Both the position numbers and the translations under genes were made by a program. This document shows positions 9,965 through 28,800 of a stretch of DNA of 64,000 nucleotides, piece by piece. Every line of letters begins with the position of its first letter. Within the stretch, counting starts at the first letter, position 1. Location of the stretch: NCBI GenBank assembly GCA_963845565.1, contig CAWJSJ010000002.1, positions 1,760,001-1,824,000 of the forward strand, given 5' to 3'. The notes under the pieces were generated by a model. It was not told the DNA's origin. It saw nothing but the letters and a program-made list of their open reading frames with translations, and did no database searches. This stretch comes from an uncultured Methylomirabilota bacterium (GTDB lineage Bacteria > Methylomirabilota > Methylomirabilia > Methylomirabilales > 2-02-FULL-66-22).

Positions 9965-11101
9965 ATGCAGACAGAATGGAAAGGAGACTATCTGGATGGC
10001 CAGACCGCCATCCGGCGGGCGGCGGCGGTCCGCCTCTTGCGGAGCGGGCTGGAGATCACCACCGAGACCGGTCACACGGCCTGGTGGCCGTACGGGGAAG
10101 TGCACCAGACCCAAGGCTTCTACGAAGGCCAGGAGGTCCGCCTGGAGCGCGGCGGGCCGCTTCCGGAGGTGGTGCTGATCCGCGATGCCGCGTTCCTAAG
10201 CGCCCTCCATCGGGCGGCACCAGACGTGGCGGCGCGGTTCCACGATCCCAGCCGTCGGCGAAGGCGCAGCGCGCTCACGGCTCTCGCGGCGCTCGCCGTC
10301 GTCGGGATCACGACGGCGCTCTATCTGTGGGGGATCCCCGGGATAGCGTCCGTCGTTGCGCCGCACGTTCCGCCGTCATGGGAGGAGCGCCTGGGAAGGA
10401 GCGTGAGCGAGCACCTGGCGCCCGAGGCGAGGCGCTGCAGCGAGAAGACCCGCGCGCAGGCGATTCAGGAGATCGCCGACTCCCTTCTCTCGACCGTGCG
10501 GGATTCCCCCTACACGTTCAGAGTCATGGTCGTGAACAACCCATCGGTGAACGCCCTAGCGGCTCCTGGGGGTTACGTCGTCGTCTTCCGTGGGTTGCTG
10601 GAGCAGACCCAGACCGCCGAGGAGTTGGCGGGCGTCCTCGCGCACGAGTTCCAGCATATCCTCTTCCGGCACACGACCCGCGCACTGCTCCGACACGCCT
10701 CGACCGGGTTGCTGCTTGCCGCCATCACCGGCGATATGACCGGGCCCATGGCGTACGGACTCGAGAGTGCCCGGATTCTCGGAGAGCTTCGCTATAGTCG
10801 GCAGGATGAGGACGAGGCGGACCGGGCGGGCTTCCGAATGCTGGTGGACGCTGGCGTGGACACCGCCGGCATGATCGCCTTCTTTGAGACGCTCGCGACG
10901 GACCGACCCAGGACGCTCACCCTTCCGCCGTACCTATCCACGCACCCGACCACCGAGGGGCGAATCGAACGGCTCCGATCGCTCGATTCGCGGACGCAGC
11001 CCGTCACGACCAGACTGCTTTCCGGTGTGGACTGGCGCGATGTTCGACGCCTCTGCGGGGCCACCAACCCGCTTGTCCGCCAAGCCGTTGTCAAAGAGTA
11101 A
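9965..11101 (+). CDS. M48-family metallopeptidase (Ste24-like)
   Basis: VNALAAPGG, ELAGVLAHEFQH (HExxH), YSRQDEDEAD and YLSTHP; typical partner of DUF898. Confidence 0.9.
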   Translation: MQTEWKGDYLDGQTAIRRAAAVRLLRSGLEITTETGHTAWWPYGEVHQTQGFYEGQEVRLERGGPLPEVVLIRDAAFLSALHRAAPDVAARFHDPSRRRRRSALTALAALAVVGITTALYLWGIPGIASVVAPHVPPSWEERLGRSVSEHLAPEARRCSEKTRAQAIQEIADSLLSTVRDSPYTFRVMVVNNPSVNALAAPGGYVVVFRGLLEQTQTAEELAGVLAHEFQHILFRHTTRALLRHASTGLLLAAITGDMTGPMAYGLESARILGELRYSRQDEDEADRAGFRMLVDAGVDTAGMIAFFETLATDRPRTLTLPPYLSTHPTTEGRIERLRSLDSRTQPVTTRLLSGVDWRDVRRLCGATNPLVRQAVVKE

Positions 11102-11189
11102 CCTGACCGGAGAAATTCCGGGAACGGCATAAGGAGCGGTGACGAAATTACAAGAGGTGGAGGGTTTCCCCTCCACCTCTTTTGTCACC
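11081..11189 (+). repeat. Dispersed ~105-bp repeat, copy 1 (diverged); contains a 13-bp hairpin that may terminate the M48 gene
   Basis: AAGCCGTTGTCAAAGAGTAACCTGACCGGAGAAATTCCGGGAACGGCATAAGGAGC matches the reverse complement of 33978-34083 and 60137-60240; AAGAGGTGGAGGG/CCCTCCACCTCTT stem. Confidence 0.75.
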
Positions 11190-11216
11190 AGGCGCCGGTG
11201 AAGTCCGCCAGAGGGG

Positions 11217-11526
11217 TTAATCCTCCGATTCGCTTCGCTCGTGCCTCTCTGCTCTCTTAATGTTCAGAACACCGCCGGGGGTTGGCGGCGGCGTGCCGAC
11301 CGCGTTCACCGTGATGGTGAAGATCACCGGAGCGCTCGTCAGCGCGGGGCTCCCGTTGTCGGTGGCGGTGCCGGCCTGAGCCGTGGTCGGCGTCCAGGCG
11401 AAGGTGTTGGTCGTCGCGTTCAGGGTCGCCCCGGTGGGCAGGTTGCCCGCCGAGAAGGTCAGGGCGCTGCCAGCATCCGGATCGGTCGCGGTTGCTGTGA
11501 GCGTGAGGAGCTGGTTTTCGTTCACG
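11217..11526 (-). pseudogene. Orphan Ig/cadherin-like repeat fragment, paralogous to the repeats of 11782-14850
   Basis: VNENQLLTLTATATDPD..LTFSAGNLPTGATL..FAWTP..ATDNGSP with an internal deletion; no signal peptide or credible start. Confidence 0.65.
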
Positions 11527-11633
11527 CGAGCGATGGGCCTACCAGTTGCCGCCCGCTCCACTGGCTCTTGATGGAATTCTTCAGGGCTGGCACATAGAGG
11601 CAAGGAAGAGTGAGAACAGTCGCCTTGCGACGG

Positions 11634-11673
11634 AAAAATGAGAAGCGGAGGTCCACTGAAGGACCCCCGCTTC
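11634..11673 (-). terminator. Rho-independent terminator after the large CxxCH-Ig gene
   Basis: GAAGCGGGGGTCC-TTCAGT-GGACCTCCGCTTC then TCATTTTT on the minus strand (one G-U pair). Confidence 0.65.
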
Positions 11674-11781
11674 GGAAGGTGGTGCGATGCCGCTTCACTT
11701 CACGAGCGTCTCGAGGTCGATCGAGAGGTCAGAGCCCGTTGGCGCTAGCGGTAACCGGTGCCGCGTCAGCGCCGACTCCCT

Positions 11782-14700
11782 CTAATCATCGTCAACTTGC
11801 ACTTGCGGAGCGACTGTCAATACCATCCGGCCCCACGCCTGCCAGGCGTCCGCGGTCACGCCGTTATTGCGGACCCAGGCGTGGACCTCGTAGTCTCCGG
11901 GGGCAGTGGGCGTCCAGCGGAGGGTGTTGCCGGGGGCCCACTCCTGCGCGACGCTCCAGGCGCTCCCGTTCCAGACCCACCACTTGAACTGATAGGGGGC
12001 GGTGCCCCCGGTCGCCGTGGCGGTGAGGGTGACGGACCGGCCGACCGGTCGGATGCCCGTCCGGTTGGCGGTGACGCTGGCCATGGTCGGGGCGGGGGTG
12101 GCCGTCACCGTGTAGGCGAGACGTCCCCACGCCTGCCAGGTGTCCGCGGTCACGCCGTTATTGCGGACCCAGGCATGGACCTCGTAGGCTCCGGGGACGG
12201 TGGGCGTCCAGGTGAGGGTGTTGCCGGTCCCCCACTCCCGCGCGACGGTCCAGGCGCTCCCGTTCCAGACCCACCACTTGAACTGATAGGGGGCGGTGCC
12301 CCCAGTCGCCGTGGCGGTGAGGGTGAGGGGCGTCCCGGCAACCTGCGGGCTCGCCTGGGTGGCGGTGACGCTGGACATGGTGGGAAGGGAAGCGGTGGGA
12401 GCAGCCGTCACCGTGTAGGTGAGGCGTCCCCACGCCTGCCAGGTGTCCGCGGTCACGCCGTTGTTGCGGACCCAGGCGTGGACCTCGTAGTTGCCGGGCG
12501 CCGGCGGCGTCCAGGTGAGGGTGTTGCCGGTCCCCCACTCTCGCGCGACGGTCCAGGCGCTGCCGTTCCAGACCCACCACTTGAACTGATAGGGGGCGGT
12601 GCCCCCGGTTGCCGTGGCGGTGAGCGTGAGGGCCGTCCCGGCCACCACCGGGCTCGCCTGGGTGGCGGTGACGCTGGACATGGTAATCGGGGTGGTGGCG
12701 GAGGAGCAGCCGTCACCGTGATGGTAAAGGTTTGCGAGGCGCTCAACGCCGGGCTGCCGTTGTCGGTCACGGCGACCGTCACGGAGTAGGGCGTCGCGCT
12801 GGCCTGACCCGCCGCCGGCGTCCAACTGAAGGCCCCAGCCGACGTCAAGGTCGCACCGGTCGGCAGCGTCGCGCTCGCAAAGGTCAACGCGTTACCGTCC
12901 GGATCGCTGGCACTCAGCGTGAACGAGAGCAACTGCCCGGTGTTCACCGTCTTGTTGCCTGGATTCGTCAGGACCGGCGCTCGGTTCGCGGCCGCCGGAG
13001 TGTTCACAGTGATGGTAAAGGTCACCGACGCGCTTGTCAGCGCCGGGCTCCCGTTGTCGGTGGCGGTGACCGTCACGGAGTAGGGCGTCGCGCTGGCCTG
13101 ACCCGCCGCCGGCGTCCAGGAGAAGGCGCCGGTTGTCGCGTTCAGGGTCGCGCCGGCCGGCAGGGTTGCGCCGGCGGAGAACGTCAGCGCGTTGCCGTCC
13201 GGATCACTCCCGGTGATCGTGAACGACAGCGGCTGACCTGCGGTCACCGTCTTGTTGCCGGGGTTCGTCACCGTCGGTGCACGGTTCACGGGTGCTGTCG
13301 TGCTCACCGTGATCGTGAAGGTCTGCGACGCGACCTGCCCGCCTGGGTCGGTCACAGTGACCGTCACGGAGTAAGGCGTCGCGCTGGCCTGACCCGCCGC
13401 CGGCGTCCAGCTGAAGGTTGCCGTGCCGTTGGTGAGTCCGGGGACCACGCTCGCGCCATTTGGCAACGTCGAGCTTGAGAAGACGAGCAGATCTCCGTCG
13501 GGATCGCTCGCGGTGAGCGCGAGCGTCAGCAGTTGCCCTTCGGCCACAGCCCGGTTACCGGGGTTCGTCAACACCGGCGGCCGGTTGACGTTGCCGACGG
13601 TGATGGTGAAGGCCTCGAAGTCGCTCGCCACCGGACTCCCATTGTCGGTCACGGTGATGGTGACGATGTAGGTGCCGGCCTGAGCGAAAGTGGGCGTCCA
13701 GCTGAAGGCCCCCGCCGGTGTCAGAGTCGCGCCGGTGGGCAGATCCCCCCGCCGAGAACGTCAGCGCGTTGCCGTCCGGATCCGTTGCGGTGGCGGTAAA
13801 CGCGAGGAGCACCCCCTCGGTCCCCGTCTTGGCACCGATCGGCGCCAGCACCGGAGGCCGGTTGACATTACCAACGGTGATGGTGACGATCTCCGAGGCG
13901 ATCAGGCCCCCGGTGTCGGTCACGGTCACGGTGACGTTGAAGTTACCGGCCTGACCCGTCGCCGGCGTCCAGCTGAAGGCTCCAGCCGGTGTCAGAGTCG
14001 CGCCGGTGGGCAGACCCCCCGCCGAGAAGGTCAGCGCGTTGCCGTCCGGGTCCGTCGCCGTGGCCGTGAAGGTGAGGGGCTGTCCCTCGGCCCCCGTCTT
14101 GGCACCGATCGGCGCCAGCACCGGCGGCCGGTTGACATTACCAACGGTGATGGTGAACGTCTCAAAGTCGCTCGCCACCGGACTCCCGTTGTCGGTCACG
14201 GTGATGGTGACCGAGTAGGGAGTGGTCTGCCCCTGCGTGAAGCTCGGCGTCCAACTGAAGGCGCCGGCGGGAGTCAGGGTCGCCCCGGTCGGCAGATTGC
14301 CGCCCGAGAAGGTCAGGGCATTGCCGTTCGGATCGGTCGCGGTGGCCGTGAACGTGAGCGGCTGTCCTTCGTTCACCGTCTTGGCACCGATCGGGTTCAG
14401 CACCGGCGGCTGGTTGCCGGCGACCGTCGGGTCCAGGGGCAGGTTCACCACGCCGGCCGGCAGCGTGGTCACGCCGTTGTTGTTGCAGCCGGCCGTGGTC
14501 GCGACACACCAGCCGGGCTGGGTGCCGCCTTGGATCTCCGCGAGGTTGGTGCCACCCACACCATCGGAGTTTAGGCTGTCGACGGCGATGAGATTCGCGG
14601 TGATATCGCCCGTGGCCGCCCCGCCGCCCAACGCATCGAGATCAACCCCGTAGCGGTTGAAGGACGACGCGTTGTTGCTCGCTGCGTGGCACAATTTGCA

Positions 14701-14850
14701 GGACGCAGCTTCGGTGCCGGTGTTCCCGTACCGCGCCGTGAATTGCGTCAGGTACTCCGACAACGCATGCGCCGTCCCAGGGGACAGCACCACCATGAAC
14801 AACATGAAGAAGATGACTCCAGCAGATACCCTCAGTGTCGTTGCGCGCAT
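11782..14850 (-). CDS. Exported ~1020-aa protein: CxxCH domain + 6 cadherin/He_PIG-like repeats + 3 Trp-rich repeats (two compensating frameshifts at ~13745 and ~12690)
   Basis: Signal peptide ending AHA; CKLCH; six N[QR]xP[VT] repeats; three YQFKWWVWNGSAW repeats; three overlapping ORFs join at G/C runs. Confidence 0.78.
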
Positions 14851-15276
14851 CTCGATTCCCCCCCCGTCCCGATTTATAGCAAACAACAAGTTGGTGGATG
14901 CACCCTCACGATTTCAGTTACATCATCTCTCCCCTATGCGTTCCGCTCCGGCTTGCGATCGTCGGGACCGACGCATGCATCACGCGCGCGACATGACACG
15001 CTTGTCCACAAGGTGGCCGGCCACACCATCACGCGGCTTGAATGAGATTGCCCTTCAGGATTGAGGTAATTGTTCCGCATGTCATCTGAATACGACCGGC
15101 GGCCATGTTTCGCTCTCGAAGAATAGACACATCCCGTGTGGTGATTTGCCCACGCCATGCGCCCCCACATTTTCTATATTGCACACTGAGCTATTGGGAC
15201 ACGGACCCCCGTTCGACTGAACGCAACACGGTTATCACGGATCCGTTGGACTCGGCAGAAATCCATACCTGATAAA

Positions 15277-15292
15277 AGCAATCTCCATGCCC
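15277..15292 (-). promoter_or_regulatory. Putative sigma-54 (-24/-12) promoter
   Basis: GGGCATGGAGATTGCT = GG-N10-GC; same core at 19212-19227. Confidence 0.65.
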
Positions 15293-15376
15293 ACACGGGA
15301 TCACGCTCGATGGATCAGGGGTCTTGGCGGCAAGTGGTCGGGATTCAAGGACGTTGGTGTCGAGTCACCACCGCAA

Positions 15377-15390
15377 ACTGACCGGTCAGT
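15377..15390. promoter_or_regulatory. Palindrome; candidate upstream activator site
   Basis: ACTGAC-CG-GTCAGT, conserved at 19312-19325. Confidence 0.5.
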
Positions 15391-15590
15391 CTGGTCGCCA
15401 CACCACGAGGGAAAGCAGGAAGTTTTTCATGAGGGCGTGTAAGAGTTACGGGCCTGCCAGGATGGGAGGGTTGCTCTTGCGTGCGCAGCGATGAACGGGC
15501 CGCGCGCGTCGTGCGTGGGTAGGCGGGCGTGTTCGCGAAAGAGGCGTTCACGCGTCGAGTCGCGAGCCCTCGCTTGCGAGTTTGTGCGAC

Positions 15591-15782
15591 CTATCGGGCG
15601 CTCCCGCTGACCTTGTTCCTCGCCGGAGTTCTGGGCGGGGCCGCCAGCGTTGCCCAATCTGTGCCCAGGGCGTTGCTCAGGTGGTAGCAGACCTTGTTCC
15701 ACTGGCGGACCAGGCCGACGGTGAGTGGCTTTGCCTCGTTGCTCTTGGCGGGGATGGCGCCCCAGCGGCGCATCGGTTCCAC
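15591..15782 (-). pseudogene. Duplicated 3' end of the M28 peptidase gene
   Basis: EPMRRWGAIPAKSNEAKPLTVGLVRQWNKVCYHLSNAL vs EPMRRLGVIPAKSSEAKQLVVGLVRQRNKMCYHLSNAL. Confidence 0.85.
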
Positions 15783-15856
15783 GCCCGATGGCTGAGCGAA
15801 ACGGATCGGCGATTCAGGAGTCGTGAGCGCGGCGCTGGTGGGCGACGAGGACTCTT

Positions 15857-16924
15857 CTACCGGAGACGGTACGTCTTGGTCATGAGCTGCCCCTGTCGCT
15901 GCAGGTGGAGTTCGACGACCGATATGCTCGGGTCGCGCTTGACCTGCTGATACAGTCGGAACAAGTCCGGGAAGCCGTTGATCGGCTGGCCGTTTATCGC
16001 CAGCACGACATCCCCGGCCTCGATCCCGGCCCGTTCGGCCATATTGGGGCTGACCACGCGAAAACCGCGTGGACCCAGGACCCCGTCGGCGACGGCCGAC
16101 TTCACGCTGAAGTTCATGCCCTGATCGAGCGAGAGCATCGGCCGGATCGTGGACATGGCCTCCGCCAGAATCCTCCCGCCGTGGTCGAAGGCCATCTGCG
16201 CGTCGGCCGCGTTAATCTCGTAGGTATCCGGGCCGGCCGGTTTGACCCGAACCTTGTCCAGAATCGCCTTATCCAGCCGCCGCTCCAACTGCAGCGAGCG
16301 GTCCGTTGCCGGCGGCGGGATTGGTGGAGCGGATGGGACGGCAACGGCCACGATCTGCGGGCTGGTGATATCCACTTCCAGGTGGCCGCGACGCTCCCGG
16401 ATTTGCAGCAGTCGAGGCTCGGGATCAACGGTGCTGCCCGCGGTGACATAGCGGTACTCGACCCCGTCGAGAAGGACCGTACCTTCCAGGCGCCGGCCGC
16501 CCGAGCCCGGAATCACGCCGCCCACTTCTACCCGAAACGATTTCGGGCCACGGGTATCGCGGATCTGCAGTCCGTCTGGGTGGAGTTTGTCCACGATGAA
16601 CCCTTGACCGGCCGCGTTCGGATCCGGAAGGAAATCCCCATTGGTATACAGGCGCCGTGTACTGGCTCGAGGCTCGCTGACGATGGCGAAACGTTGTGGG
16701 GTCGCGAACGTCACCTCAGCGGTCGGGGAGGGGTCCGGCGCCGTCGCCTCGATCGGCGCGCGCGACACGGGCGCGACTGGGGCCTTCGATTGAGCGGCCG
16801 GGGCCTTCGTCTGGCTCGCGGCGGCCGCCGGGTCAGTCCAGGAAAGCAGCGCACTCGCGGCCAGCGCGGTCGTCAGCGAGCACCGCCACGCGCGATGGCG
16901 CCCGATGGAAAGATGGGCTCGCAT
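15857..16924 (-). CDS. Exported protein with C-terminal PDZ domain (GspC-like C-terminus)
   Basis: Signal-like N-terminus; RAGIEAGDVVLAINGQPI..LQRQGQLMTKTYRLR; GGAGG RBS. Confidence 0.72.
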   Translation of the reverse strand: MRAHLSIGRHRAWRCSLTTALAASALLSWTDPAAAASQTKAPAAQSKAPVAPVSRAPIEATAPDPSPTAEVTFATPQRFAIVSEPRASTRRLYTNGDFLPDPNAAGQGFIVDKLHPDGLQIRDTRGPKSFRVEVGGVIPGSGGRRLEGTVLLDGVEYRYVTAGSTVDPEPRLLQIRERRGHLEVDITSPQIVAVAVPSAPPIPPPATDRSLQLERRLDKAILDKVRVKPAGPDTYEINAADAQMAFDHGGRILAEAMSTIRPMLSLDQGMNFSVKSAVADGVLGPRGFRVVSPNMAERAGIEAGDVVLAINGQPINGFPDLFRLYQQVKRDPSISVVELHLQRQGQLMTKTYRLR

Positions 16925-16935
16925 GTTTGCCTCCT

Positions 16936-18843
16936 TCAGCCCCGGCGGGACCGGCGGACGACCAGCCAGACTCCGACGATGGGTAGGAGCGGCATCCCAA
17001 ACCCAATCGCCGGTGACCACAATGCCAACGTCGCCCAGCCCAGGAGCGGCATCAGGGCGAACCGCACAACCGCCCGGAGGGTCTCCGAACGGCCGATGAC
17101 GCCCGCAACCCCCGGGCTCACGGCGTAGTACCAATCCACCAGCACTCGCCCTGGCCCATACGGCAGGAGATAGGTATCGCGGACCTCGCGCAGGAGCTGG
17201 ACCTGCGGTGCCAGGGGTGACCCGAACGCCGCCGTGGCGATGAAGCAGCCACCGCCCGAGGAAGCCGGTGCGGGCGCATACAGAACCGAGACAACCACAT
17301 TTGACTGCGTGCTACTCAGTACGCCATCGCTCACGACAAGTCCCACCACATAGCTTCCGGCCCAGACGGGAGTGAAGGTCGGGTTCGCCGTCGTGGGATT
17401 CCCCAGCGTCGCCGCGCTCCCCGCGGGCTGGGAGACGAAAAACCACCGGTAGGTAAGCGCTTGGCCTTGAGGATCGCTCGAGCCGCTGCCATCGAGCGTG
17501 ACCGTGGTTCCCACGGTAACCGCCTGATCCGGCCCGGCATTTGCCACCGGCGCGAGGTTTCCCGCAGCCGCGGTGACCACCACCGTATCCGGCGGGCTGT
17601 TCACCTGCCCGTCGTTGACGATCAACTGCACCGTGTAGCTGCCCGCCACATCGGCCACGAAGGTCGGCTGCACCGCCGCGACATTCGAGAGCGCCGCCAC
17701 GCTCCCCGCGGGCCGGGAGACGAACGACCAGGCGTAGGTCAGCGGATCTCCGTTGGGGTCGGTCGAGCCGCTGCCATTCAACGTGACCGTCTGCCCCACA
17801 TTGACCGCCTGATCCAGCCCGGCATTCGCCACCGGCGGGAGATTTCCCGTAGTCACCAACACCGTATCCGGCGGGCTGTTCACCTGCCCGTCGTTGACGA
17901 TCAACTGCACCGTGTAGCTGCCCGCCACATCGGCCACGAAGGTCGGCTGCACCGCCGCGACATTCGAGAGCGCCGCCACGCTCCCCGCGGGCCGGGAGAC
18001 GAACGACCAGGCGTAGGTCAGCGGATCTCCGTTGGGGTCGGTCGAGCCGCTGCCATTCAACGTGACCGTCTGCCCCACATTGACCGCCTGATCCGGCCCG
18101 GCATTCGCCACCGGCGGGAGATTCTGGGCGGGGGCCGCGGTGACCACCACCGTATCCGGCGGGCTGTTCACCTGCCCGTCGTTGACGATCAACTGCACCG
18201 TGTAGCTGCCCGCCACATCGGCCACGAAGGTCGGCTGCACCGCCGCGACATTCGAGAGCGCCGCCACGCTCCCCGCGGGCCGGGAGACGAACGACCAGGC
18301 GTAGGTCAGCGGATCTCCGTTGGGGTCGGTCGAGCCGCTGCCGTTCAGAATGGCCGTCTGCCCCACATTGACCGCCTGATCCGGCCCGGCATTTGCCACC
18401 GGGGGGGTGTTACCCGGGCCTGCCGGGTCCAGGGGCAGCGTCGGCACGGGGGGCGGCAGCGTGGTCACGCCGTTGTTGTTGCAGCCGGCGGTGGTTGCGA
18501 CACACCAACCGGGCTGGGTGCCGCCTTGGATCTCCGCGAGGTTGGTGCCGCCCACACCATCGGAGTCGAGGCCTTCGACTGCGATGAGATTCGAGGTGAT
18601 ATCGCCGGTGGCCGCCCCGCCGCCCAACGCATCGAGATCAACCCCGTAGCGGTTGAAGGACGACGCGTTGTTGCTCGCTGCGTGGCACAGTTTGCACGAC
18701 GCAGCCTCGGTGCCGGTGTTGCCGTACCGCACCGTGAATTGCGTCAGGTACTCCGACAAGGCGTGCGCCGTCCCTGCGGACAGCGCCAGTGCCAACAAGA
18801 AGGAAATGGCCGCGGCAGATACCGTTCGCGTCGTTGCCCTCAT
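16936..18843 (-). CDS. Exported protein: CxxCH domain + 4 PKD-like repeats + CFI-box-CTERM-like tail
   Basis: Signal ending AHA; CKLCH; four PVANAGxDQ repeats; GGGCFIATAAFGS..VQLLREVRD followed by a TM helix and RRSRR. Confidence 0.85.
   Translation of the reverse strand: MRATTRTVSAAAISFLLALALSAGTAHALSEYLTQFTVRYGNTGTEAASCKLCHAASNNASSFNRYGVDLDALGGGAATGDITSNLIAVEGLDSDGVGGTNLAEIQGGTQPGWCVATTAGCNNNGVTTLPPPVPTLPLDPAGPGNTPPVANAGPDQAVNVGQTAILNGSGSTDPNGDPLTYAWSFVSRPAGSVAALSNVAAVQPTFVADVAGSYTVQLIVNDGQVNSPPDTVVVTAAPAQNLPPVANAGPDQAVNVGQTVTLNGSGSTDPNGDPLTYAWSFVSRPAGSVAALSNVAAVQPTFVADVAGSYTVQLIVNDGQVNSPPDTVLVTTGNLPPVANAGLDQAVNVGQTVTLNGSGSTDPNGDPLTYAWSFVSRPAGSVAALSNVAAVQPTFVADVAGSYTVQLIVNDGQVNSPPDTVVVTAAAGNLAPVANAGPDQAVTVGTTVTLDGSGSSDPQGQALTYRWFFVSQPAGSAATLGNPTTANPTFTPVWAGSYVVGLVVSDGVLSSTQSNVVVSVLYAPAPASSGGGCFIATAAFGSPLAPQVQLLREVRDTYLLPYGPGRVLVDWYYAVSPGVAGVIGRSETLRAVVRFALMPLLGWATLALWSPAIGFGMPLLPIVGVWLVVRRSRRG
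17581..18400. repeat. Three near-identical ~280-bp intragenic tandem repeats (PKD-like units)
   Basis: ACCGTATCCGGCGGGCTGTTCACCTGCCCGTCG recurs at ~17582, ~17861 and ~18149. Confidence 0.9.
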
Positions 18844-19211
18844 CTCAATCCCCCCCCGTCACGGTCTTCAGAAAACAACCGATCCGCGGCCATGCCGCTC
18901 ATATGCATATCAACGAAACCGACCGGAACATCCCGACTGGTTTTGTTTTCGCGTCGATCGGGGGAAAACCAAGGAGTGTTGGGACCGTTGACACTTGCGA
19001 GAAGAACGTTTTGGCATGGTCCGGCGATCGGGTTGATCTACCGACTTCCGGAGTGGATGCGCCGTCCCATTCTCACGCAACCTCAAAAAGATTAATGTGC
19101 CAAGAACCGCCGCGCAAGAAGGTTTTATCTTTGACGCCTCGGAAGCAATTAGGGTACGAGGTACCGATGATCACGGATCCGCAGGACCTGGTGAAAACGA
19201 AAAGTGATAAT

Positions 19212-19227
19212 AGCAATCTCCATGCCT
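19212..19227 (-). promoter_or_regulatory. Putative sigma-54 (-24/-12) promoter
   Basis: AGGCATGGAGATTGCT = GG-N10-GC. Confidence 0.65.
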
Positions 19228-19311
19228 TCACGGATCACTTCTAATCGATTCGGAGGTCGAAGCAGGAAGTCTACCGGATTCAATGAGGTTGGTGTGGCGT
19301 CAACCAGGTGA

Positions 19312-19325
19312 ACTGACGGGTCAGT
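19312..19325. promoter_or_regulatory. Palindrome; candidate upstream activator site
   Basis: ACTGAC-GG-GTCAGT; a second palindrome, TGTAATATTTACA, lies at 19371-19383. Confidence 0.5.
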
Positions 19326-19526
19326 CTGGTGGCCACACTACGAGGTTAGGAGCAGGTCTTACGTGGAGTGTGTAATATTTACAGGTCGGGCAGGATCTGA
19401 GAGCTGCTCGCGCGTGTACAGCAGTAATGATCGGGTCGCGCACGTCATGCGTGGGCAGGCGGGCGCGTCAGCGACCGAGGCGTCTGCTGTTCGGCTCTCG
19501 ATCCTTCGCGCGGGCGCTGGTCCGGA

Positions 19527-21320
19527 CTATCGGGCGGGCCTGCTGGCCTTGTTCCTGGCCGGAACTTTGGGCAACGCTGCCAGCGTGGCGTGGACCGTAG
19601 CCAGGGCATTGCTCAGGTGGTAACACATCTTGTTTCGTTGGCGGACCAGACCGACGACGAGTTGCTTTGCCTCGCTGCTCTTGGCGGGGATGACGCCCAA
19701 GCGGCGCATCGGCTCCAGGCCGGGGAACGGCGGGACTGGCAGCGTCGTGTCGTGGTCGAACGGGCCGGAGCGGCAGTAGTTGATCGGGATCATTTGCCGA
19801 CCGAGGGCCATCAGGCACACGTTGGCCAGTTCGGCTGCGGTCGGGGGCAGGGTCTGCGAGCGAATCGCGCGCTCGAGTCGCGCGACCGCCTTGCCGAGGT
19901 CGCCCAGCAAGCCGAAGACCGGCGTGAGATCGAAGCGGCCCTTCGCCTCTCTCGCGTACTGGGTCAGGATCGCCCGGGCTTCGGCCACCGCCGCGCGGTA
20001 GTCCAGCGGCAGAATGGGGTCTTCCAGCGCGCGCTGCGCGGCCAGCACATAGATCTGCGCGTCGCGCACCAGGTGGGCCGGGTCCAGCTTGTCCAGCGTG
20101 TCGGCCGGGGTGTGCCACCACCAGCCCAGACCGCCGCTCCGCGTCGCGCCGCCCATGAGCTGGGCGTAGGCCCGGGCGCCGTCGGAGTCGTCCGCCGGCT
20201 GTTCCGAGGGGCTCATGAAGAGCGAGGGGACGCCGTGGCCCCAGAAGGACTGGTCCGCCGCCCGCGGGGGCCGGACGCCCGACAGGCGCTGCCCCGCGAT
20301 CTTCTCCACGACGTCCGAGCCGAGGTCGCGCGCCTCGGCCATGGCGATGGCCTCGGTCATCAGCGTCGCGCCCTTGGCGCCCACGCAATCCACATTCACG
20401 TGGAGCACGCAGTGCTGATGAAGGTCCCGCCAGCAATGGTCCGCGTACCAGGCGGAGCCGCCGTACCGGGCGTGGGAATGGCCCGACCAGAAGGCGAGGC
20501 GCAAGTCGCGCCGCAGGTGCTTCTTTCTGGCGGCGAAGATGCGACCGACCTCCATCTGCGTGGCGTTGCCCGCCCCGTTGTCCATCGCCCCGTAATGCCA
20601 GGAGTCCACGTGGCCGCTCATGAGGACGAAGTCGCCGTTTCCCCGGGGCGCACGCAGATGTGCGATGAGGAGCGGGAGGGTGCGCCAGCGCGTGTCCACC
20701 TGGGTGCGGAGGCGAACGCGAACGGGACCCCGGCCCAGCGCCGCACGGAGGAGGCGGCCACCCTCGCGATTGATGGAGACCATGGGGGTCCTGGGGAGTA
20801 GGCCGGCGTTCTCGGGCGAGGGGGAGCCCCAGACGATGGAGGTGATCATCTCGTGCATCTGGTCGCCGCAGGCGTGAATCTGTGCCGCCGCTCCCGCCTG
20901 CTCGACCCGAAAGACCTTGCCCGGCATCGCGTGACCGTCGCACAGGGCCGCCCGGCCGGCAATGGGGAGGCCCGCCAACGTCGCGGGATCGGCCCGGCCG
21001 ACGTCCACCAATTCCAGCGCGACACCTTCGGGTGGTGTGGAGGCGGCCATGGAGTGCGTGATGCACGGAATGCTTGCAGGTGCGTCCCCCAGCAGCTCCA
21101 GGAGCGCTGCCACCGGCCAGCTCGTCCAGCACTCCGGCCGATGCGCCTCGATCTCGAACCCCCAGCCGCTCAATGTGCGAGCGATGTACCGGAACGCGGT
21201 ACGCTCTTCGGCCGATCCCGACAAGCGCACCCGGCGGGTGACGTGAATGAGAAAGTCCTCGAGGCGTTCCGCCGAGACCTGGTTGGCCAGGGCCCGTTCT
21301 GCCGCCGTCAGCTTTGCCAT
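19527..21320 (-). CDS. M28-family peptidase with PA domain
   Basis: SGHVDSW, GAMDNGAG, WSGHSHARYGGS, NVDCVG and WWHTPADT. Confidence 0.85.
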   Translation of the reverse strand: MAKLTAAERALANQVSAERLEDFLIHVTRRVRLSGSAEERTAFRYIARTLSGWGFEIEAHRPECWTSWPVAALLELLGDAPASIPCITHSMAASTPPEGVALELVDVGRADPATLAGLPIAGRAALCDGHAMPGKVFRVEQAGAAAQIHACGDQMHEMITSIVWGSPSPENAGLLPRTPMVSINREGGRLLRAALGRGPVRVRLRTQVDTRWRTLPLLIAHLRAPRGNGDFVLMSGHVDSWHYGAMDNGAGNATQMEVGRIFAARKKHLRRDLRLAFWSGHSHARYGGSAWYADHCWRDLHQHCVLHVNVDCVGAKGATLMTEAIAMAEARDLGSDVVEKIAGQRLSGVRPPRAADQSFWGHGVPSLFMSPSEQPADDSDGARAYAQLMGGATRSGGLGWWWHTPADTLDKLDPAHLVRDAQIYVLAAQRALEDPILPLDYRAAVAEARAILTQYAREAKGRFDLTPVFGLLGDLGKAVARLERAIRSQTLPPTAAELANVCLMALGRQMIPINYCRSGPFDHDTTLPVPPFPGLEPMRRLGVIPAKSSEAKQLVVGLVRQRNKMCYHLSNALATVHATLAALPKVPARNKASRPAR

Positions 21321-21549
21321 GATGTCTCCTCGCGCCGATCGTTGCGGGTGTCTCGTCGGCTGAGATGATCGCTCTGCGCCCGGCGGATTTCAACCCCGTT
21401 TTCTTGAAGCGCCGAGGCGCCGCGGGAAAGTTGTCCCACAAACTGGACAGGGGGGCCCCGAAGACGTGGCAACAGGGAGCGGGTTGGACTATACTCAGAG
21501 CGGCGTCAATCCGACCGAGCGTGCATCGGTCTTCACAGGAGGAGTACCC

Positions 21550-23826
21550 ATGGCAAGCACCGCCAAGATTGCAACCCAGGAACAGATCGAGGCCCTCGTG
21601 GCTGCCAGCCGACCCGAGCGGTTATCGGACCCCGGCAAGCGGCCGATCACGGGCGATCACGCCGCCAACGTGGTGCAGCTCACCACTTGGGGGCAGACCG
21701 CGCTGGCGGCCGACCACTTGCTGTTCCCCGAGCTGAACGGGTGCCTGCCGGGCATCGTGGCGGGGGTGATCCGGCAGCTGAACATCCGGTTCGTCGGGGC
21801 CGGCCTGCACGCGGGCGATTCGCCGGCGGAGGTCGCGCGCAAGATTCGCGATCGCCAGTACGCCTACGAAACCCTGCTCGAGACGACCATCAACTTCTGC
21901 GGACTGGAAAGCCGGTGGTTGGATGCCGCCGAGCGCTGCCAGGCGGTGGGGAGCATTCGAGGCGCCCTGGCCGAGTGGGAGGCCCGCGAGGCGGCGGAGG
22001 GGCAGGGCTCGGTGGCCGTTGCCGTCGTGCGCCGGTTTCTGGATCGGATGAAGCTGGTCCAGAAGGGAATCAGCATGGCCGCCAAGGCAGCGCTCCGGAT
22101 CGAGCAGGCGCTGGACTTCGGCAAGCCCATTCTTCTGCCGTTCCTGGACAAGGTCCACGCCGAGATCGAGGCGAACATCTACACTCGGATGGTGCGGGAA
22201 GGCCGCTGCCGCTTCGGGAACGACTACGCGCTGGGCCTCCGCTGGCTGCGTCACCTGGGGTTCGAGCAGGTGTCCACCAACCCGGTCCTGGCGGCCCTGG
22301 CCTATTCCGACGATCCGTCGCTGGCGCAGGCCCTCAACGACGAAGTGAAGTTTCACCCCAAGTTCGCCGCCTGGAAGGCCGCGCCGGAGAAATTCGGCGA
22401 CGAGATCGCGCTCTATGCGACGCTGCTGGCCCTGTGGGACAACCTGCACGTCTACCGGCCGATCTTCTTCAACCTGGCCGGCACCTCCGGCGGCGGCGTG
22501 GTCTCCTTCCAGTTGAACCCGAATATCGCCCACCTGGTGCAGGAGAGCGTTCGGGACGTCTTCGCCGCCTTTGCCGAGGCGACGGAGGATCTGCGCCTCT
22601 ATGATGACTACCTCCTGGCGGGCTATCCGGCCACGCGCGAGCGGTCCCGACCCAACGTGGTGATCAAGGTCGCGGCGTCGTCACCCGCCGCCCGCGAGAT
22701 CGCCCGGACCATCAACTCCTTCGGATTCGGCTCCAACATCACCGTCATCTACACGGTGGGCCAGGAAGTCACCATGGTTCTGGAGGAGTTGGCCGGCATG
22801 GCGGCCGCCATCAAGAAGGGGATCGTGCCCACCCAGCTCTACATGACCAACATGGGCGGCCGGTTCGAGAGCCACCTGCGGGAAGCGAAACTGGAAAGCC
22901 TCTTCGGTGAGCTGAAGGAGCTGGTCGGAGAGGCCAAGGCGCTGGCGAAGGTGAACCAGCTCGCTGCCGCGAACGGGACCAAGGCGAAGGTGGACGAGGC
23001 GAAGGGGTACGAGGCCAAGGTCGTGGCAGCCACGCGGTTCGCCAGCCAGCGGACGATCGACGCGAATGTCGCCGCAGCCCTGGCGGACGTCGCCTCCGCC
23101 GATGCCCTGAAGACCTGGGAGGACGCGATCGGCAAATCGGGCACGCTGGTAGCCCGGCGCGCCTGGGGCATCTTCTGGTCCGAGGGGAACCGGGGCAAGT
23201 GGGTCGAGTATCTTGCCAAGAAGCACCAGATCAGCAAGGAGCAGGCGGCCTTGATCCTGAGCCGCGTCAACTACCTGCCGGCCTCCAAGCGGAAGCCGCA
23301 GGACACCTACTGGACGCTGACCGGGTTCAACATGGTGCACACCGAGTTCCCGAACCACCAGGAGAACGTGCGCAAGATGGCGGAGGAACCGGGCTTCAAG
23401 CTGGCGGACTACGTCGAGTCGATCACGCAGCCGTTCCCCGCCGAGGTCGTCAAGCGACTCACCACGATTCCGGATTTCCGGCTGGGCTACGAGTTGAACG
23501 GGGAGCTCAGCCAGCTCTTGCGCCAGGTGGGAATCGACGGCGACTTCGGGATTGGAGGCCACACGCCCGAGCAGTGGCCCGAGTTCGGTTCGGTCCAGAA
23601 GACGCTGACGGAATTCAAGGCAGCCTATGACAAGTTCCGGGGCGACATGCTGTCGCTCTTCAATGCGGCGGCGGGGCCGGCGGCGAAGGTCGCCAAGCCC
23701 ACGGCTGCAAAGAAGGCTGCCGCGAAGGCGGTGACCGCGAAGAAGGCGGCGGCCAAGCCGTCGGCGAAGAAAGTCGTGAAGAAGGCGCCCAGGGCGGCGG
23801 CCACCAAGCGTGGGGCGCGCCGCTAG
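21550..23826 (+). CDS. Large transaldolase-family protein with N-terminal extension and Lys/Ala-rich tail
   Basis: VSTNP, VSFQLNPNIA, PNVVIKVA (Schiff-base Lys position) and SNITVIYT; AGGAGG RBS. Confidence 0.75.
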   Translation: MASTAKIATQEQIEALVAASRPERLSDPGKRPITGDHAANVVQLTTWGQTALAADHLLFPELNGCLPGIVAGVIRQLNIRFVGAGLHAGDSPAEVARKIRDRQYAYETLLETTINFCGLESRWLDAAERCQAVGSIRGALAEWEAREAAEGQGSVAVAVVRRFLDRMKLVQKGISMAAKAALRIEQALDFGKPILLPFLDKVHAEIEANIYTRMVREGRCRFGNDYALGLRWLRHLGFEQVSTNPVLAALAYSDDPSLAQALNDEVKFHPKFAAWKAAPEKFGDEIALYATLLALWDNLHVYRPIFFNLAGTSGGGVVSFQLNPNIAHLVQESVRDVFAAFAEATEDLRLYDDYLLAGYPATRERSRPNVVIKVAASSPAAREIARTINSFGFGSNITVIYTVGQEVTMVLEELAGMAAAIKKGIVPTQLYMTNMGGRFESHLREAKLESLFGELKELVGEAKALAKVNQLAAANGTKAKVDEAKGYEAKVVAATRFASQRTIDANVAAALADVASADALKTWEDAIGKSGTLVARRAWGIFWSEGNRGKWVEYLAKKHQISKEQAALILSRVNYLPASKRKPQDTYWTLTGFNMVHTEFPNHQENVRKMAEEPGFKLADYVESITQPFPAEVVKRLTTIPDFRLGYELNGELSQLLRQVGIDGDFGIGGHTPEQWPEFGSVQKTLTEFKAAYDKFRGDMLSLFNAAAGPAAKVAKPTAAKKAAAKAVTAKKAAAKPSAKKVVKKAPRAAATKRGARR

Positions 23827-24453: not shown

Positions 24454-24508
24454 GTCGCCGTTTGTCGTGTGATGCGGACGGGTGATGACCGGTCCGGTGG
24501 GGAGAGCC

Positions 24509-25213
24509 ATGCAGCTTACCGTGCGAGACGTCGCGAGTCTCCTGAAGGTGTCCGAGCGGACGATCTATCGGTGGATCAAGGAGGGGACCATCCCCGCCTA
24601 CAAGATCAGCGAGCAGTACCGGTTTCACCGGGCCGAGATCCTGGAGTGGGCGACGGCGCGCCGGATCGGCGTGTCGGTGGACATCTTCGAGGAGGCCGAC
24701 GACGCCACGGCTCGTCCGCCCGTCCTCAGCGAGGCCTTGCAGGCAGGCGGGATCGTGTACCGATTGGGCGGAGCCGACAAAGAGTCGGCGTTACGCGCCG
24801 CGGTGGACGCGATGCGCCTGCCCGAAGAGGTGGACCGGGAACAGTTGCTCCGTGTGCTCGTGGCGCGCGAGGCGATGGCCTCGACGGCCATCGGGGATGG
24901 CATCGCTATCCCGCACGTGCGTAACCCCATCGTGCTGCATGTCCCACGCTCCATGGTCACGCTCTGCTTCCTCGAAAAGCCGATCGACTTCGGGGCGCTG
25001 GACGGGCAGCCGGTTCACTGTTTGTTCACCATGGTGAGCCCGACGGTGCGATCCCACCTGCATCTGCTCTCCCGGCTGGCCTTCGCGCTCCGGGACCCGG
25101 GGTTCCAGGGGGCGATCCGGCGTCAGGGGCTGCGTGACGAGATCCTGACGGAGCTCCGCCGGGTGGAGTTCGGCCTGAACGCCGCGCGGACGACCGGCCC
25201 GGCGGGCGAGTAA
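24509..25213 (+). CDS. HTH_17 (excisionase-like) DNA-binding domain fused to a PTS EIIA(Ntr/Fru-type) domain
   Basis: LTVRDVASLLKVSERTIYRWIKEG; REAMASTAIGDGIAIPH with the phospho-acceptor His. Confidence 0.9.
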   Translation: MQLTVRDVASLLKVSERTIYRWIKEGTIPAYKISEQYRFHRAEILEWATARRIGVSVDIFEEADDATARPPVLSEALQAGGIVYRLGGADKESALRAAVDAMRLPEEVDREQLLRVLVAREAMASTAIGDGIAIPHVRNPIVLHVPRSMVTLCFLEKPIDFGALDGQPVHCLFTMVSPTVRSHLHLLSRLAFALRDPGFQGAIRRQGLRDEILTELRRVEFGLNAARTTGPAGE

Positions 25214-25219
25214 TCCTCG

Positions 25220-27215
25220 ATGACGCTTTTCCTGTTCGCGATGGGTGTGATCGTCCTGGGCGGTCTGTCGGCCCTGATCGCCGGCCGTTCCGCCAGACGC
25301 GCCTCGCTACTCGGGGCGGGCGGCGCGGTGACAGGCTGTGCGCTGGCGCTGGGTCCGGCACTCCGGGCGCTCCTCGGGGGGCCGTTGGAGCGGCTGGACG
25401 CCCCGTGGAGCATGCCCGGGGGGAGCTTCTCGGTCGCGCTGGATCCGGTGTCCGGCCTCTTTCTGGTCCCGACGCTGTTCCTCTCGGCGTTGGCCGCCGT
25501 GTACGGAACGGGCTACCTGAAGCCATTCGGTGCGACCAGGGCGCTCGGGGAGGCCTGGTTCTGTTTCGACCTCCTGGTCGTCAGCATGGCGCTGGTCATG
25601 GTCGCCAGGAACGGCGTGCTGTTCCTGGTCGCCTGGGAGGTGATGGCGCTGGCGTCCTTCTTCCTGGTGACCTTCGATCGCAAAACCGCGAGCGTCCGCG
25701 ACGCCGGCTGGACATACCTGATCGCCACGCACCTGGGTACGGCGTTCCTCCTGGCCATGTTCGTGTTGCTTGGAGGCGCGACCGGCTCGCTCGAGTTCGA
25801 CGGCTTCGGGACGGTCGCGGGGACCGCCCCAGGGCTGATCGGGCCGCTCTTCCTCCTCGCGGTCATCGGATTCGGCACCAAGGCCGGATTCATCCCGCTG
25901 CACGTCTGGCTGCCGGAGGCGCACCCCGCCGCGCCCAGCCATGTCTCGGCGGTCATGTCCGGCGTGATGATCAAGACGGGGATCTACGGCCTCGTGCGCT
26001 TTCTGATCGTCCTCGGTCCGCCGCCGGTGTGGTGGGGGTGGCTGCTGATCGGGATCGGAGTGACCTCGGGCGTTCTCGGCGTTCTTCTGGCACTGGCCCA
26101 GCACGACCTCAAGCGGCTGCTCGCCTACCACAGCGTCGAGAACATCGGCATCATCACGCTCGGGCTTGGCCTCGGGACGCTGGGCGTCGCCACAGGCATG
26201 CCCGCGCTGGCCGTGCTCGGGTTCGGCGGCGGACTGCTGCACGTCGTGAACCACGCGCTCTTCAAGGGACTGCTGTTCTTGGGGGCGGGTGCTGTGCTGC
26301 ACGGCGCGGGCACGGGGGAGATCGATCATCTCGGTGGACTGCAGCGGCGGATGCCCTGGACGGGCACCTGTTTCCTGGTGGGGGCGGCGGCCATCTCGGG
26401 GCTCCCGCCGCTCAACGGCTTCGTAAGCGAGTTCCTCATCTATCTGGGGGCGTTTCTGGGGGTGATCGCGGCCGCGGGGACGGTGGGGATCCTGGTCTCG
26501 GGGCTTGTCACTATCGGCGCGCTGGCGCTCATCGGCGGACTGGCGGCGGCCTGTTTCACCAAGGCGTTCGGGATCGTGTTCCTGGGCGAGCCCCGGAGCC
26601 ACCATGCTGCGGATGCGCACGAGGCGGGTGCGAGCCATGCGGTGGCCGATGGCGATCCTGGCGGCGGGCTGCGCTGTGGTCGGCCTCTTCCCGGCGCCGG
26701 CGCTGCGGGCCTTGGCGCCTGCGCTGCGCCTCGTCACGCGGCAGCCGGAGACGGCAGTCGCCGGGGCGCTCGCCGATGCGGCGACCCCGCTCTGGATGAT
26801 CACGGCGGTGGCGACGGTTTTCCTGGCCGCGGTCCTGCTCCTGGCCGCGGTGCGCCGGAAGTGTCTGGCGGGTCGGCCGGTGGAGGAGACCGTGACCTGG
26901 GATTGCGGATACGCGCGACCGACCGCCCGCATGCAGTACACGGCGTCGTCGTATGCGCAACCGTTGACCGAACTCTTTCGGCTGGTCCTGCGGACGCGAG
27001 TCCGCCTGGTCGCGCCGACGGGCCTCTTCCCGTCGCGAGCGATGCTGGTCACGGAGACGCCGGACGTGTTCCGCGAGGCCGTCTTCCGGCCGGCGTTTGT
27101 CGGGATCCGGCGGGCGCTCGATCGCCTGCGGATCCTCCAGCACGGACGGATCCAGCTCTATGTTCTGTACGTCGTGCTGACGCTGGTCGCCCTGATGGTG
27201 TGGACGCTGCGATGA
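25220..27215 (+). CDS. hyfB: HyfB-like antiporter subunit (NuoL/M/N family); frameshift ~26630
   Basis: GFGTKAGFIPLHVWLPEAHPAAPS and LKRLLAYHSVEN; C-terminal TWDCGY..RMQYT in the shifted frame. Confidence 0.85.
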
Positions 27216-28141
27216 GCCACCTGGCCTGGACCATGATGATGATGGCGGTCCCGCTGGCGACCGGGCTGCTCCTGGCGCCGCTGCTGCTTACGGTCATCAA
27301 CCGCGTCAAGGCGTTCTTCTCCGGCCGGCGGGGGCAACCGCTCCTCCAGCCCTACCTCGACCTCTGGAAGCTGCTCGGGAAGGGCGCCACCTACAGCCGG
27401 ACCACCACCTGGATCTTCCGGGCCGGACCGATCGTGGGGCTGGCCGCCACCCTGGCCGTCCTGGCCATGATGCCCTTGGGCGGCGTGCCGGCGCCGGTCA
27501 GGTTTCGGGGCGACCTCCTGCTCTTTGCCAATCTGCTCGGGCTGATGCGCTTCATCACGGTGGTCGCGGCGTTGGATACCGGGTCGAGCTTCGAGGGGAT
27601 GGGGGCGAGTCGCGAGGTGCTCTTCTCCGCCCTCGCCGAGCCGGCGCTCCTCGTCGGCCTGGCGGCCGTGGCACTGGAGACGCGGAGCATCTCCCTATCG
27701 GACATGGTGGCATCGGTAACGGCCGAGCGCTGGTTGACTCAGGGGCCGGCCCTCGGGCTGGTCGTGGTGGCCCTCGGCCTGGTCCTGGTGACGGAGAACG
27801 CCCGCATCCCGGTGGATGATCCGACCACCCACCTGGAACTGACCATGATCCACGAGGTCATGGTCCTGGATCACGGCGGGCCGGACCTGGCCTTCATCCT
27901 GTACGGTGCGGCGCTCAAGCTCTGGGCGCTGGGCGCGCTTCTGGTCGGAATGGCGGTGCCCGTTCGGACCGGCAATCCGCTGCTCGATCTGGGGGCATTC
28001 CTCGCGGGGATGCTGATCCTGGCGGTGGTGATCGGCGTCGTGGAGTCCTCGATGGCGCGCCTCCGTCTTCTGCGGATCCCCAAGCTGCTGGTCGGGGCGA
28101 CGGCGCTGGCGGTGCTGGCCGTCGTGCTCGTCTTGAGGTGA
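27212..28141 (+). CDS. hyfC: HyfC/HycD (NuoH-like) membrane subunit
   Basis: GRRGQPLLQPYLDLWKL, FEGMGASRE and RIPVDDPTTHLELTMIHE; ATGA overlap with hyfB. Confidence 0.88.
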   Translation: MSHLAWTMMMMAVPLATGLLLAPLLLTVINRVKAFFSGRRGQPLLQPYLDLWKLLGKGATYSRTTTWIFRAGPIVGLAATLAVLAMMPLGGVPAPVRFRGDLLLFANLLGLMRFITVVAALDTGSSFEGMGASREVLFSALAEPALLVGLAAVALETRSISLSDMVASVTAERWLTQGPALGLVVVALGLVLVTENARIPVDDPTTHLELTMIHEVMVLDHGGPDLAFILYGAALKLWALGALLVGMAVPVRTGNPLLDLGAFLAGMLILAVVIGVVESSMARLRLLRIPKLLVGATALAVLAVVLVLR

Positions 28142-28145
28142 AGCG

Positions 28146-28796: not shown

Positions 28797-28800
28797 TCCG

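Follow-up and report, generated by a model that had tools for sequence, protein, structure and literature searches.

The window analysed here is a stretch of 64,000 nucleotides from an uncultured Methylomirabilota bacterium, and this text deals with three neighbouring genes that it contains, all of them on the minus strand: gene A (16936..18843), a GspC-like gene that encodes a PDZ protein (15857..16924) and gene B (11782..14850). A and B encode exported proteins that begin with the same small domain, termed here the head, which carries a CxxCH motif and is set on a different stalk of immunoglobulin-like (Ig-like) repeats in each of them. A also ends in a CFI-box-CTERM domain (CFI box), and it is to this tail, and not to the head, that we find the PDZ gene tied. 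On balance, we read the locus as the meeting point of two separately mobile modules, namely the CxxCH head on its Ig stalks and a GspC-derived adaptor of the CFI-tailed A.

Layout of the locus

Gene A is a single intact open frame of 635 residues. Its signal peptide (aa 1-28, 18760..18843, ending AHA) was placed from the sequence and from its register in homologues, and the mature chain is predicted to run from Leu29 on, by simple scoring and not by a dedicated signal-peptide predictor. The head follows (aa 29-130, 18454..18759; delimited by alignment and model) and comprises the CxxCH motif, NxYG, an acidic DSDG..N..EI loop and QPGWC..C; the motif itself reads CKLCH (18682..18696), with its first Cys at mature residue 22. 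Next come four PKD (Ig-like) repeats (17281..18408, four stretches matched by Pfam PF22352), an SSGGG sequence and, behind it, the CFI box (aa 533-600, 17044..17247), which matches NF041770 with 87.9 bits against a cut-off of 40. This domain lies near the C-terminus, and the hydrophobic stretch and RRSRR basic end behind it (16939..17043) are predicted from their sequence to form a membrane anchor. All of these features, like those given below for the rest of the locus, are on the minus strand.

The GspC-like gene, located between A and B, encodes 355 aa and starts 11 bases after the stop of A, with an AGGAGG site. Its product consists of a signal-peptide-like N-terminus, an HR-like beta domain, an extra beta insert, a linker and a PDZ domain, and the predicted model shows a beta N-domain, a flexible linker and the PDZ. 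Gene B encodes a signal peptide, the head (CKLCH at 14686..14700), six He_PIG/cadherin-like repeats and three Trp-rich Ig-like repeats, with no anchor. A first-pass annotation of this DNA had described near-identical heads on A and B, and they are indeed identical at 97 of 102 residues (tblastn E 2e-61, far beyond chance) and at 290 of 306 nucleotides, with 11 synonymous and 5 non-synonymous codon differences. The head motif that it quoted is found in both proteins, and its repeat counts (four PKD in A; six cadherin/He_PIG-like and three Trp-rich in B) were correct. Two RNA runs gave small shares and short contigs on A and B and none listed on the GspC-like gene, which is uninformative on expression either way.

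The GspC-like protein and the CFI box

Profile comparison identifies the PDZ protein as a whole-length GspC homologue (an HR-like domain plus PDZ), which bears out its earlier description as GspC-like. Aligned by hhalign with 12 GspC_delta proteins, its family reaches 98.8% with E 1e-16 over a span that includes the HR-like domain, the pre-PDZ segment and the PDZ, and its N-domain alone reaches 61% (E 8e-5), against 0.12% for a reversed control. The best NCBIfam match of the gene is GspC_delta (30 bits, far below the cut-off of 150), and all 22 of the 22 members of its family match this model; PF11356 matches neither this gene nor the short gene of the core secretion operon described below. 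The known GspC/EpsC/OutC proteins (NF041515 GspC_delta; PDB 2i4s, 2i6v, 5hj1) align with it over 190 columns through the HR-like domain, the linker and the PDZ. It differs from them in staying below the equivalog cut-off, in the extra beta insert after the HR and in having a signal-peptide-like N-terminus, not an anchor. It also differs in genomic setting, as its paralogues occur several per genome, beside or fused behind CFI cargo, the core operon having a separate gene devoid of PDZ. By eye, the leader looks cleavable, and in the fusions a leader of this kind still separates the CFI tail from the HR domain. An Atlas search with the N-domain gave an unnamed best match at 0.82.

The PDZ gene is genetically tied to the CFI-box tail of A. 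A CFI box is found within 2.5 kb at 36 of 46 PDZ places, always on the same strand and in 31 cases directly upstream, the 46 places being those kept to E 3.6e-7 after merging fragments, with a cut set after the table had been seen and dropped rows that were mostly PDZ-only. Conversely, 37 of the 61 CFI places above cut-off (7 rows dropped) have a PDZ place, and several of the misses lie at contig ends. Among 251 genomes of the phylum, 32 hold both elements, 4 only the CFI box and 2 only the PDZ family. The two are even joined in one open frame at 12 of 30 loci, one of which is possibly a frameshift and five of which, from another family, keep mainly the PDZ half; the database proteins P0174-P0176 are also such fusions. 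The cargo in front of the CFI box is varied and includes FG-GAP repeats, beta-propeller-type repeats, a subtilisin-like protease and others, under names that are partly our own assumption. In an independent metagenome set, the CFI box was found at 11 of 17 loci of the GspC-like family versus none of 63 generic PDZ loci.

The head does not share this linkage. Head and PDZ gene are linked in 2 of the 251 phylum genomes, namely this one and its congener G009. In the fetched flanks, the head was found at none of 80 metagenome PDZ loci and, within 1.5 kb, at none of 30 CFI loci; the PDZ family or CFI box was found at none of 20 head loci from other phyla, a set that comes from a single-protein scan and is biased to Myxococcota. 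Thus, as the GspC-like gene travels with the CFI membrane tail and not with the head, its product is likely to be a cargo-specific export adaptor.

The type II secretion link suggested by the first-pass annotation has a counterpart in the genome, which encodes a PilMNOPQ cluster and a second, type II-like cluster composed of GspF-like, GspE-like and PilMNO-like genes, a short anchor-plus-HR-like gene, a secretin and three pilins; the ATPase, platform, PilMNO-like and pilin genes of the latter are what we take them to be from sequence and general knowledge. The short gene occupies the GspC position and carries no PDZ. The GspC-like gene lies outside this operon here, and at its end in 5 relatives from two families. 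The relatives' order is F-E-M-N-O-short HR-secretin-3 pilins-cargo+CFI-GspC-like in 5 of 6 fetched loci, which are those whose coordinates place a secretin near a CFI box; the sixth reaches the cargo+CFI gene and then the contig edge. In these operon-end pairs, the GspC-like part is either a separate gene or a fused domain. Over the order, 34 of 66 genomes have a secretin homologue, and in family f7 the secretin homologue, the CFI box and the PDZ family are jointly absent (0 of 20 each).

These arrangements recall several known systems. GspC is built of an anchor, an HR that binds the secretin and a PDZ implicated in specificity (accessible part of 10.64898/2026.05.07.723501), and in Vibrio one cargo, VesB, requires the PDZ of EpsC by way of its Ig fold (accessible part of PMC12369372). 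A has Ig folds, as VesB does, and a Gly-rich tail, as do the GlyGly-CTERM and MYXO-CTERM proteins, which require type II secretion (accessible part of 10.1101/2023.06.07.544157). The GlyGly-CTERM/rhombosortase and MYXO-CTERM/myxosortase systems are like the CFI box in joining a Gly-rich motif, a membrane segment and a basic C-terminal tail to unrelated exported proteins. The CFI box differs in being a domain of 69 residues for which no processing enzyme is known, and it is a putative sorting signal.

We propose that A and B very probably cross the inner membrane via Sec. A would then be tethered by its CFI tail. The GspC paralogue, co-translated with A and set free in the periplasm by its own signal peptide, would supply in trans the PDZ recognition domain that is missing from the short gene at the GspC position of the core operon, and hand A to the secretin; we lean slightly towards this hand-over. 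A would finally be displayed on the surface and B, which has no anchor, released or bound via its Trp-rich repeats, an outcome that we advance tentatively. In a fuller version of this scheme, which we hold to be somewhat unlikely, GspC would be split: the core operon of the type II-like machine would retain the anchor-HR half alone, and every CFI cargo would come with a soluble HR-PDZ adaptor, in many cases as a polyprotein cut by signal peptidase. The cargo would here be an initial representative of a temptin-related cytochrome class that is widespread, has an unmatched fold and closes its haem with the N-terminal amine.

Several observations weigh against this scheme. No PDZ gene is near 24 of the 61 CFI places, and 10 of the 46 PDZ places have no CFI box, including the paralogue on C5 in this genome; as the genomes are kin, the linkage counts are inflated and not independent. 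The secretin reaches 152 against a GspD cut-off of 351 and 166 against a PilQ cut-off of 284, so the machine can only be called type II-like, and the short operon gene matches the GspC HR weakly (hhalign 1.8%, E 0.028; 23.8 bits). Here, some 900 kb separate the locus from the secretion cluster, and many congeners have the secretin and lack the module (secretin in 16 of 20, CFI box in 9 of 20). Among the Foldseek matches, the PDZ domains of EpsC and PulC do not outrank those of the HtrA type. An Actinomycetota genome (L065) has heads that stand alone, and thus the head does not need this secretion route. A complex prediction between the periplasmic part of the GspC-like protein and the CFI box gave a score of 0.01, uninformative either way.

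Other explanations address different steps of the scheme, and the probabilities that we attach to them are not meant to add up to one. We consider it unlikely that the PDZ protein serves CFI-box proteins in the periplasm as a chaperone or in quality control, where it would, for example, bind their processed C-terminus and play no role at the secretin. Such a role would suit the apparent cleavable signal peptide (by eye) found in place of the GspC membrane anchor, the position of the gene outside the secretion operon in this genome and most others, and the PDB sequence matches of the protein, which are the RseP and DegP PDZ domains; however, alignment with GspC covers both the HR-like domain and the GspC-specific segment before the PDZ, the gene has its operon position in 5 genomes of two families, and it is absent jointly with the secretin in f7. 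Finally, the first-pass annotation saw a three-gene system in which the PDZ protein would be dedicated to the haem head and serve both stalked proteins, a candidate that synteny here and in one congener and the database proteins P0013-P0015 (head, PKD and CFI) would favour but that we reject as very improbable, since the linkage counts largely refute it and B has its own duplicated promoter block.

Database models exist for the parts of the locus, and the CFI-GspC coupling was not found in the literature searched. No paper on the CFI box was found in a coverage that leaves out most subscription journals. Among the matches listed, none described a cargo-linked GspC (searched as GspC/PDZ and GlyGly-CTERM), and none joined Methylomirabilota with secretion. 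The accessible part of 10.1101/2023.06.07.544157 neither mentions the CFI box nor describes a cargo-linked GspC. The coupling ties the uncharacterised CFI-box signal to a secretion route, and the natural cargo-adaptor pairs and fusions provide matched sets for swap tests of type II cargo recognition. To our knowledge, PDZ dependence in type II secretion is known for single substrates only.

The GspC-like family has three copies in this genome (G000). Of the two outside the window, one (G000 C4:28100-31540) lies between the decayed fragment of a CFI box on its upstream side and a gene for FG-GAP + CFI on its downstream side, and the other (G000 C5:579820-582820) follows a repeat gene that is predicted to be lipoprotein-like and lacks a CFI box.

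The CxxCH head and its putative haem

The head occurs well beyond this locus. Among 1.84 billion representatives searched, 433 clusters matched it at E<=1e-3, and the alignment counts given below rest on 150 of these. The CxxCH motif, whose conservation the first-pass annotation had proposed to check, is kept in 144 of the 150 head segments (C 146, C 145 and H 146 for the single positions), and the six misses are fragments, frameshifted records or, in one case, a CxxxCH. NxYG, a Glu, DSDG..N..EI and PG are near-invariant, as are Tyr12, Asn36, Tyr38 and Glu62, and a second Cys pair is present in only part of the family. The same annotation also saw the head as modular, and this is amply confirmed by the many different stalks among its homologues. 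In 83 proteins scanned with Pfam (the query plus 82 of the 150 homologues), it stood in front of PKD, cadherin, choice-of-anchor-type Ig, FN3, FG-GAP, dockerin, GSDH, PQQ-type and DUF2231 domains or of additional cytochrome c and MtrC-like domains, and it was also seen by itself or in as many as seven tandem copies. Named head loci come from Gammaproteobacteria, Alphaproteobacteria, Myxococcota, Nitrospirae, Planctomycetota and Actinomycetota. Within its own phylum, the head is rare, with matches in 7 of 251 genomes, 4 of which have the monohaem type as read from the loci. This genome has four copies, which are those of A and B, a copy on C1 with another Trp-rich stalk and the GEGP dihaem protein on C5.

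This exported head is likely to bind one c-type haem, as its motif suggests. The genome contains a cytochrome c maturation system of type I (Ccm), as the first-pass annotation had asked to verify: the cluster at C2:2661-2667 kb matches the CcmC/CcmF and CcmE families and comprises CcmA/B/C/E/F/H-like genes, the names beyond these families being ones that we presume from sequence and general knowledge. ResB was not found in this genome. A CcmE or ResB match is present in 22 of 23 other head genomes, several of the ResB matches being weak or marginal. The Ccm system would very probably attach the haem to CxxCH. The frame of A and the first frame of B have one CxxCH each and their stalks have no haem motif, and therefore A and B cannot be wires on their own, which led us to reject an electron-wire reading. 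The haem at the tip of a haem-free stalk would most likely act as a point of local one-electron redox contact with partners or surfaces outside the cell.

The sixth ligand of such a haem is less easily assigned. The conserved distal Met or His of class I or bis-His cytochromes is not seen in the head family: 66 of 143 head cores, and also the head studied here, have no His or Met outside CxxCH, and no column is conserved for either. In 111 of 139 homologues, a small-x-Ala site precedes the conserved Tyr by exactly 12 residues, which is about 21 residues ahead of CxxCH; the same pattern occurs 0-5 times at offsets 6-11 and 13, and 60 times at offset 14, as expected from AxAxA runs. With a simple scorer, the first Cys falls at mature position 22-23 in 83 of 138 cases, and the side chain of mature residue 1 is variable. 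Because there is no conserved His or Met and a signal-peptidase-type site is fixed in register, we suggest that the N-terminal amine may be the sixth haem ligand, as in cytochrome f, a suggestion to which we give as much credence as doubt. Cleavage of the signal peptide would then free the alpha-amino group of residue 1 to bind the iron, and the acidic loop would bind calcium, steps on which our confidence is evenly divided. Of 14 internal tandem heads, which have no free N-terminus, 11 carry a His or Met in the matching window, as compared to 11 of 136 single heads at mature positions 1-5. The GEGP proteins have a His near their N-terminus.

These points must be set against others that make the case for the haem and its amine ligand less compelling. 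Counted over the same 7-residue window, which includes signal-peptide residues, single heads have a His or Met in 41 of 136 cases, and the repeat comparison comes from 4 related proteins, three of them close kin, with windows that are unequal. An N-terminus fixed in this way might also have arisen for other reasons. Maturation systems are widespread in any case: of 14 control genomes, 5 have CcmE and 6 have ResB.

The head might instead bind haem c in a five-coordinate state, or with the conserved Tyr as ligand, and act as a ligand binder, a sensor or a small catalyst and not as an electron carrier, which we see as on the unlikely side. It would agree with the lack of a conserved His or Met in the head, with the near-invariance of the four residues named above (Tyr12, Asn36, Tyr38 and Glu62) and with cytochrome c'' as the only sequence hint in the PDB, at a non-significant E of 0.42, but it would leave unexplained both the N-terminal register (111/139) and the enrichment of His and Met in the internal repeats (11/14). 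Quite improbable is a haem-free head, in which CxxCH would be a disulfide or a metal (Zn/Cu) site within a temptin-like, calcium-binding adhesion domain. The remote relation to Temptin_C, whose namesake is a disulfide-bonded animal protein (accessible part of PMC2762978), the lack of a cytochrome fold match and the second Cys pair in part of the family would be in line with it, yet it must contend with the exact CxxCH spacing and invariant His in an exported protein, with Ccm in the genome, with the fusions to other cytochrome domains and with the homology of 100 of 105 heads to the first domain of an NCBIfam dihaem family.

Returning to the proposed amine-ligated haem, its closest analogues lie in cytochrome f and the Cyc2/Cyt572 proteins. 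Cytochrome f uses Tyr1 and His25 as its haem ligands (accessible part of PMC8044140), and the head resembles it in having CxxCH close behind the signal-peptidase site, its His being mature residue 26. The N-terminal monohaem domains of Cyc2/Cyt572 likewise have CxxCH near this site, and Cyc2-type proteins have only one predicted axial ligand (accessible part of PMC13741234). The head matches neither group in sequence or fold; it is a small helical domain with an acidic loop, and it is carried by Ig stalks and not by a porin or membrane complex. Its predicted structure is confident (pLDDT 88.5, five helices), and against known folds it gave no Foldseek match and a best VIA Z of 2.8, which says little on whether it has a class I cytochrome c fold. 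A PDB sequence search with the head gave nothing better than E 0.036.

By profile, the family appears remotely related to Temptin_C (PF24784, from Aplysia temptin) and to the first domain of the GEGP dihaem family (NF041762), and by score belongs to neither. The similarity to Temptin_C holds at the level of family profiles, from NxYG to DxDGDG..N..E, whereas this head gives no match, being below the gathering cut-off, and carries CxxCH. Three homologues with tandem repeats exceed the cut-off by summed score with no single stretch significant, 8 of 59 family members match at E<=0.05, and an Atlas comparison gave 0.92. As for NF041762, its N-terminal domain is like the heads and matches 100 of 105 of them, A and B reaching only 23 and 19 bits against a cut-off of 300. 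GEGP proteins differ in having two CxxCH, an N-terminal His and a long C-terminal part, where A and B have one CxxCH and Ig stalks. No work on a haem motif in temptin-like domains was found among the matches listed, in which the temptin papers concern animals or oomycetes by title. Haem binding, if true, would give the temptin family a biochemical function. More generally, the head family counts at least 433 clusters and no solved relative, and a domain of 100 residues makes haem binding and the rare amine ligation directly testable.

Some further heads and head-like proteins deserve mention. The third monohaem head of this genome (G000 C1:1559-2638) is 38% identical, has a different Trp-rich stalk and lies at the end of a repeat-rich cluster of surface genes. 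The full GEGP dihaem protein (G000 C5:323052-324671, L031; 441 bits) lies downstream of a gene that we take to be aldehyde:ferredoxin oxidoreductase-like, with genes presumably of the tungstate-binding type nearby, and the oxidoreductase neighbour is the same in congeners G004 and G009. A conserved family of about 500 residues (L066, L069-L071, L073-L080, L082, L083), mostly from Myxococcota, combines an N-terminal head with a second CxxCH; two of its records, labelled Enterobacteriaceae, look like mis-binned contigs. A protein of the same order (L025:250-1692, G029) starts with IPAFARK..CxxCH and continues into a porin-like body, and we assume it to be Cyc2-like.

Gene B, its duplication history and the neighbouring genes

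Gene B, which starts at 14850 and stops at 11782, is spread over three frames (13555-14889, 12453-13652 and 11782-12825), with breaks near 13745 and 12699 that the first-pass annotation did not mention. The break near 12699 is missing from contigs of three public runs (X3, X5 and X6), which carry frame-restoring indels. No listed public-run contig bridges the break near 13745, and the close relatives P0010-P0012 read through it. The frameshifts are therefore likely to be assembly errors, a conclusion short of proof for the break near 13745, and B would be one gene of roughly 1000 residues. Other repeat-rich genes are broken too in the same six-contig assembly. That B might be a true pseudogene was rejected, as it is intact in relatives.

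Gene B arose via tandem duplication of promoter and head, with a different stalk, as follows from the near-identical head and the duplicated upstream block common to A and B. This block (15234..15785) contains the decayed 3' end of an M28 peptidase gene and intergenic DNA, and over about 550 bases it is 74% identical to 19170-19721, upstream of A. Since the heads are more identical than the block, selection or gene conversion may have acted on them.

Both copies of the block retain a sigma-54-type -24/-12 motif (19213..19226 for A and 15278..15291 for B) and, about 100 bases upstream of it, a palindrome (19311-19328 and 15376-15393, respectively). The consensus is one that we presume from general knowledge, and the pattern, composed after the sequence had been seen, has 3 matches in the genome, 2 of them at the locus, and 3 in the locus of the congener, each before a stalk gene. 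The genome encodes RpoN. The distance from motif to start codon is unusually long (18844-19200, about 360 bases, and 14851-15265, about 415 bases), and an Rfam scan of 11000-19600 gave a single chance-level match, leaving these long leaders with no Rfam family. The same motif is found upstream of a stalk gene of G009 (L008:5273-5671) in which all that is left of the head is a signal peptide and, directly ahead of the first Ig repeat, a bare peptide with CxxCH.

Beyond the end of B, an orphan fragment with a single He_PIG repeat (11217..11603, minus strand; Pfam and congener comparison) is likely to be the remnant of a third stalk gene, because the congener has a long Ig-repeat gene at that position. 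The Trp-rich repeat of B recurs, up to 91% identical, at the C-termini of other surface proteins of this genome (G000 C2:2130254-2134705 and C4:10238-12355), and it is a second mobile module that may serve as a non-covalent anchor.

Elsewhere in the window, a 786-residue frame (21466-23826) has no Pfam or NCBIfam match at E 0.01 and is conserved in the congener; we assume it to be transaldolase-like. The region 24482-31662 carries a fusion of HTH and PTS IIA, followed by fused antiporter/NADH-dehydrogenase-like membrane subunits, and is probably an operon of the membrane hydrogenase type.

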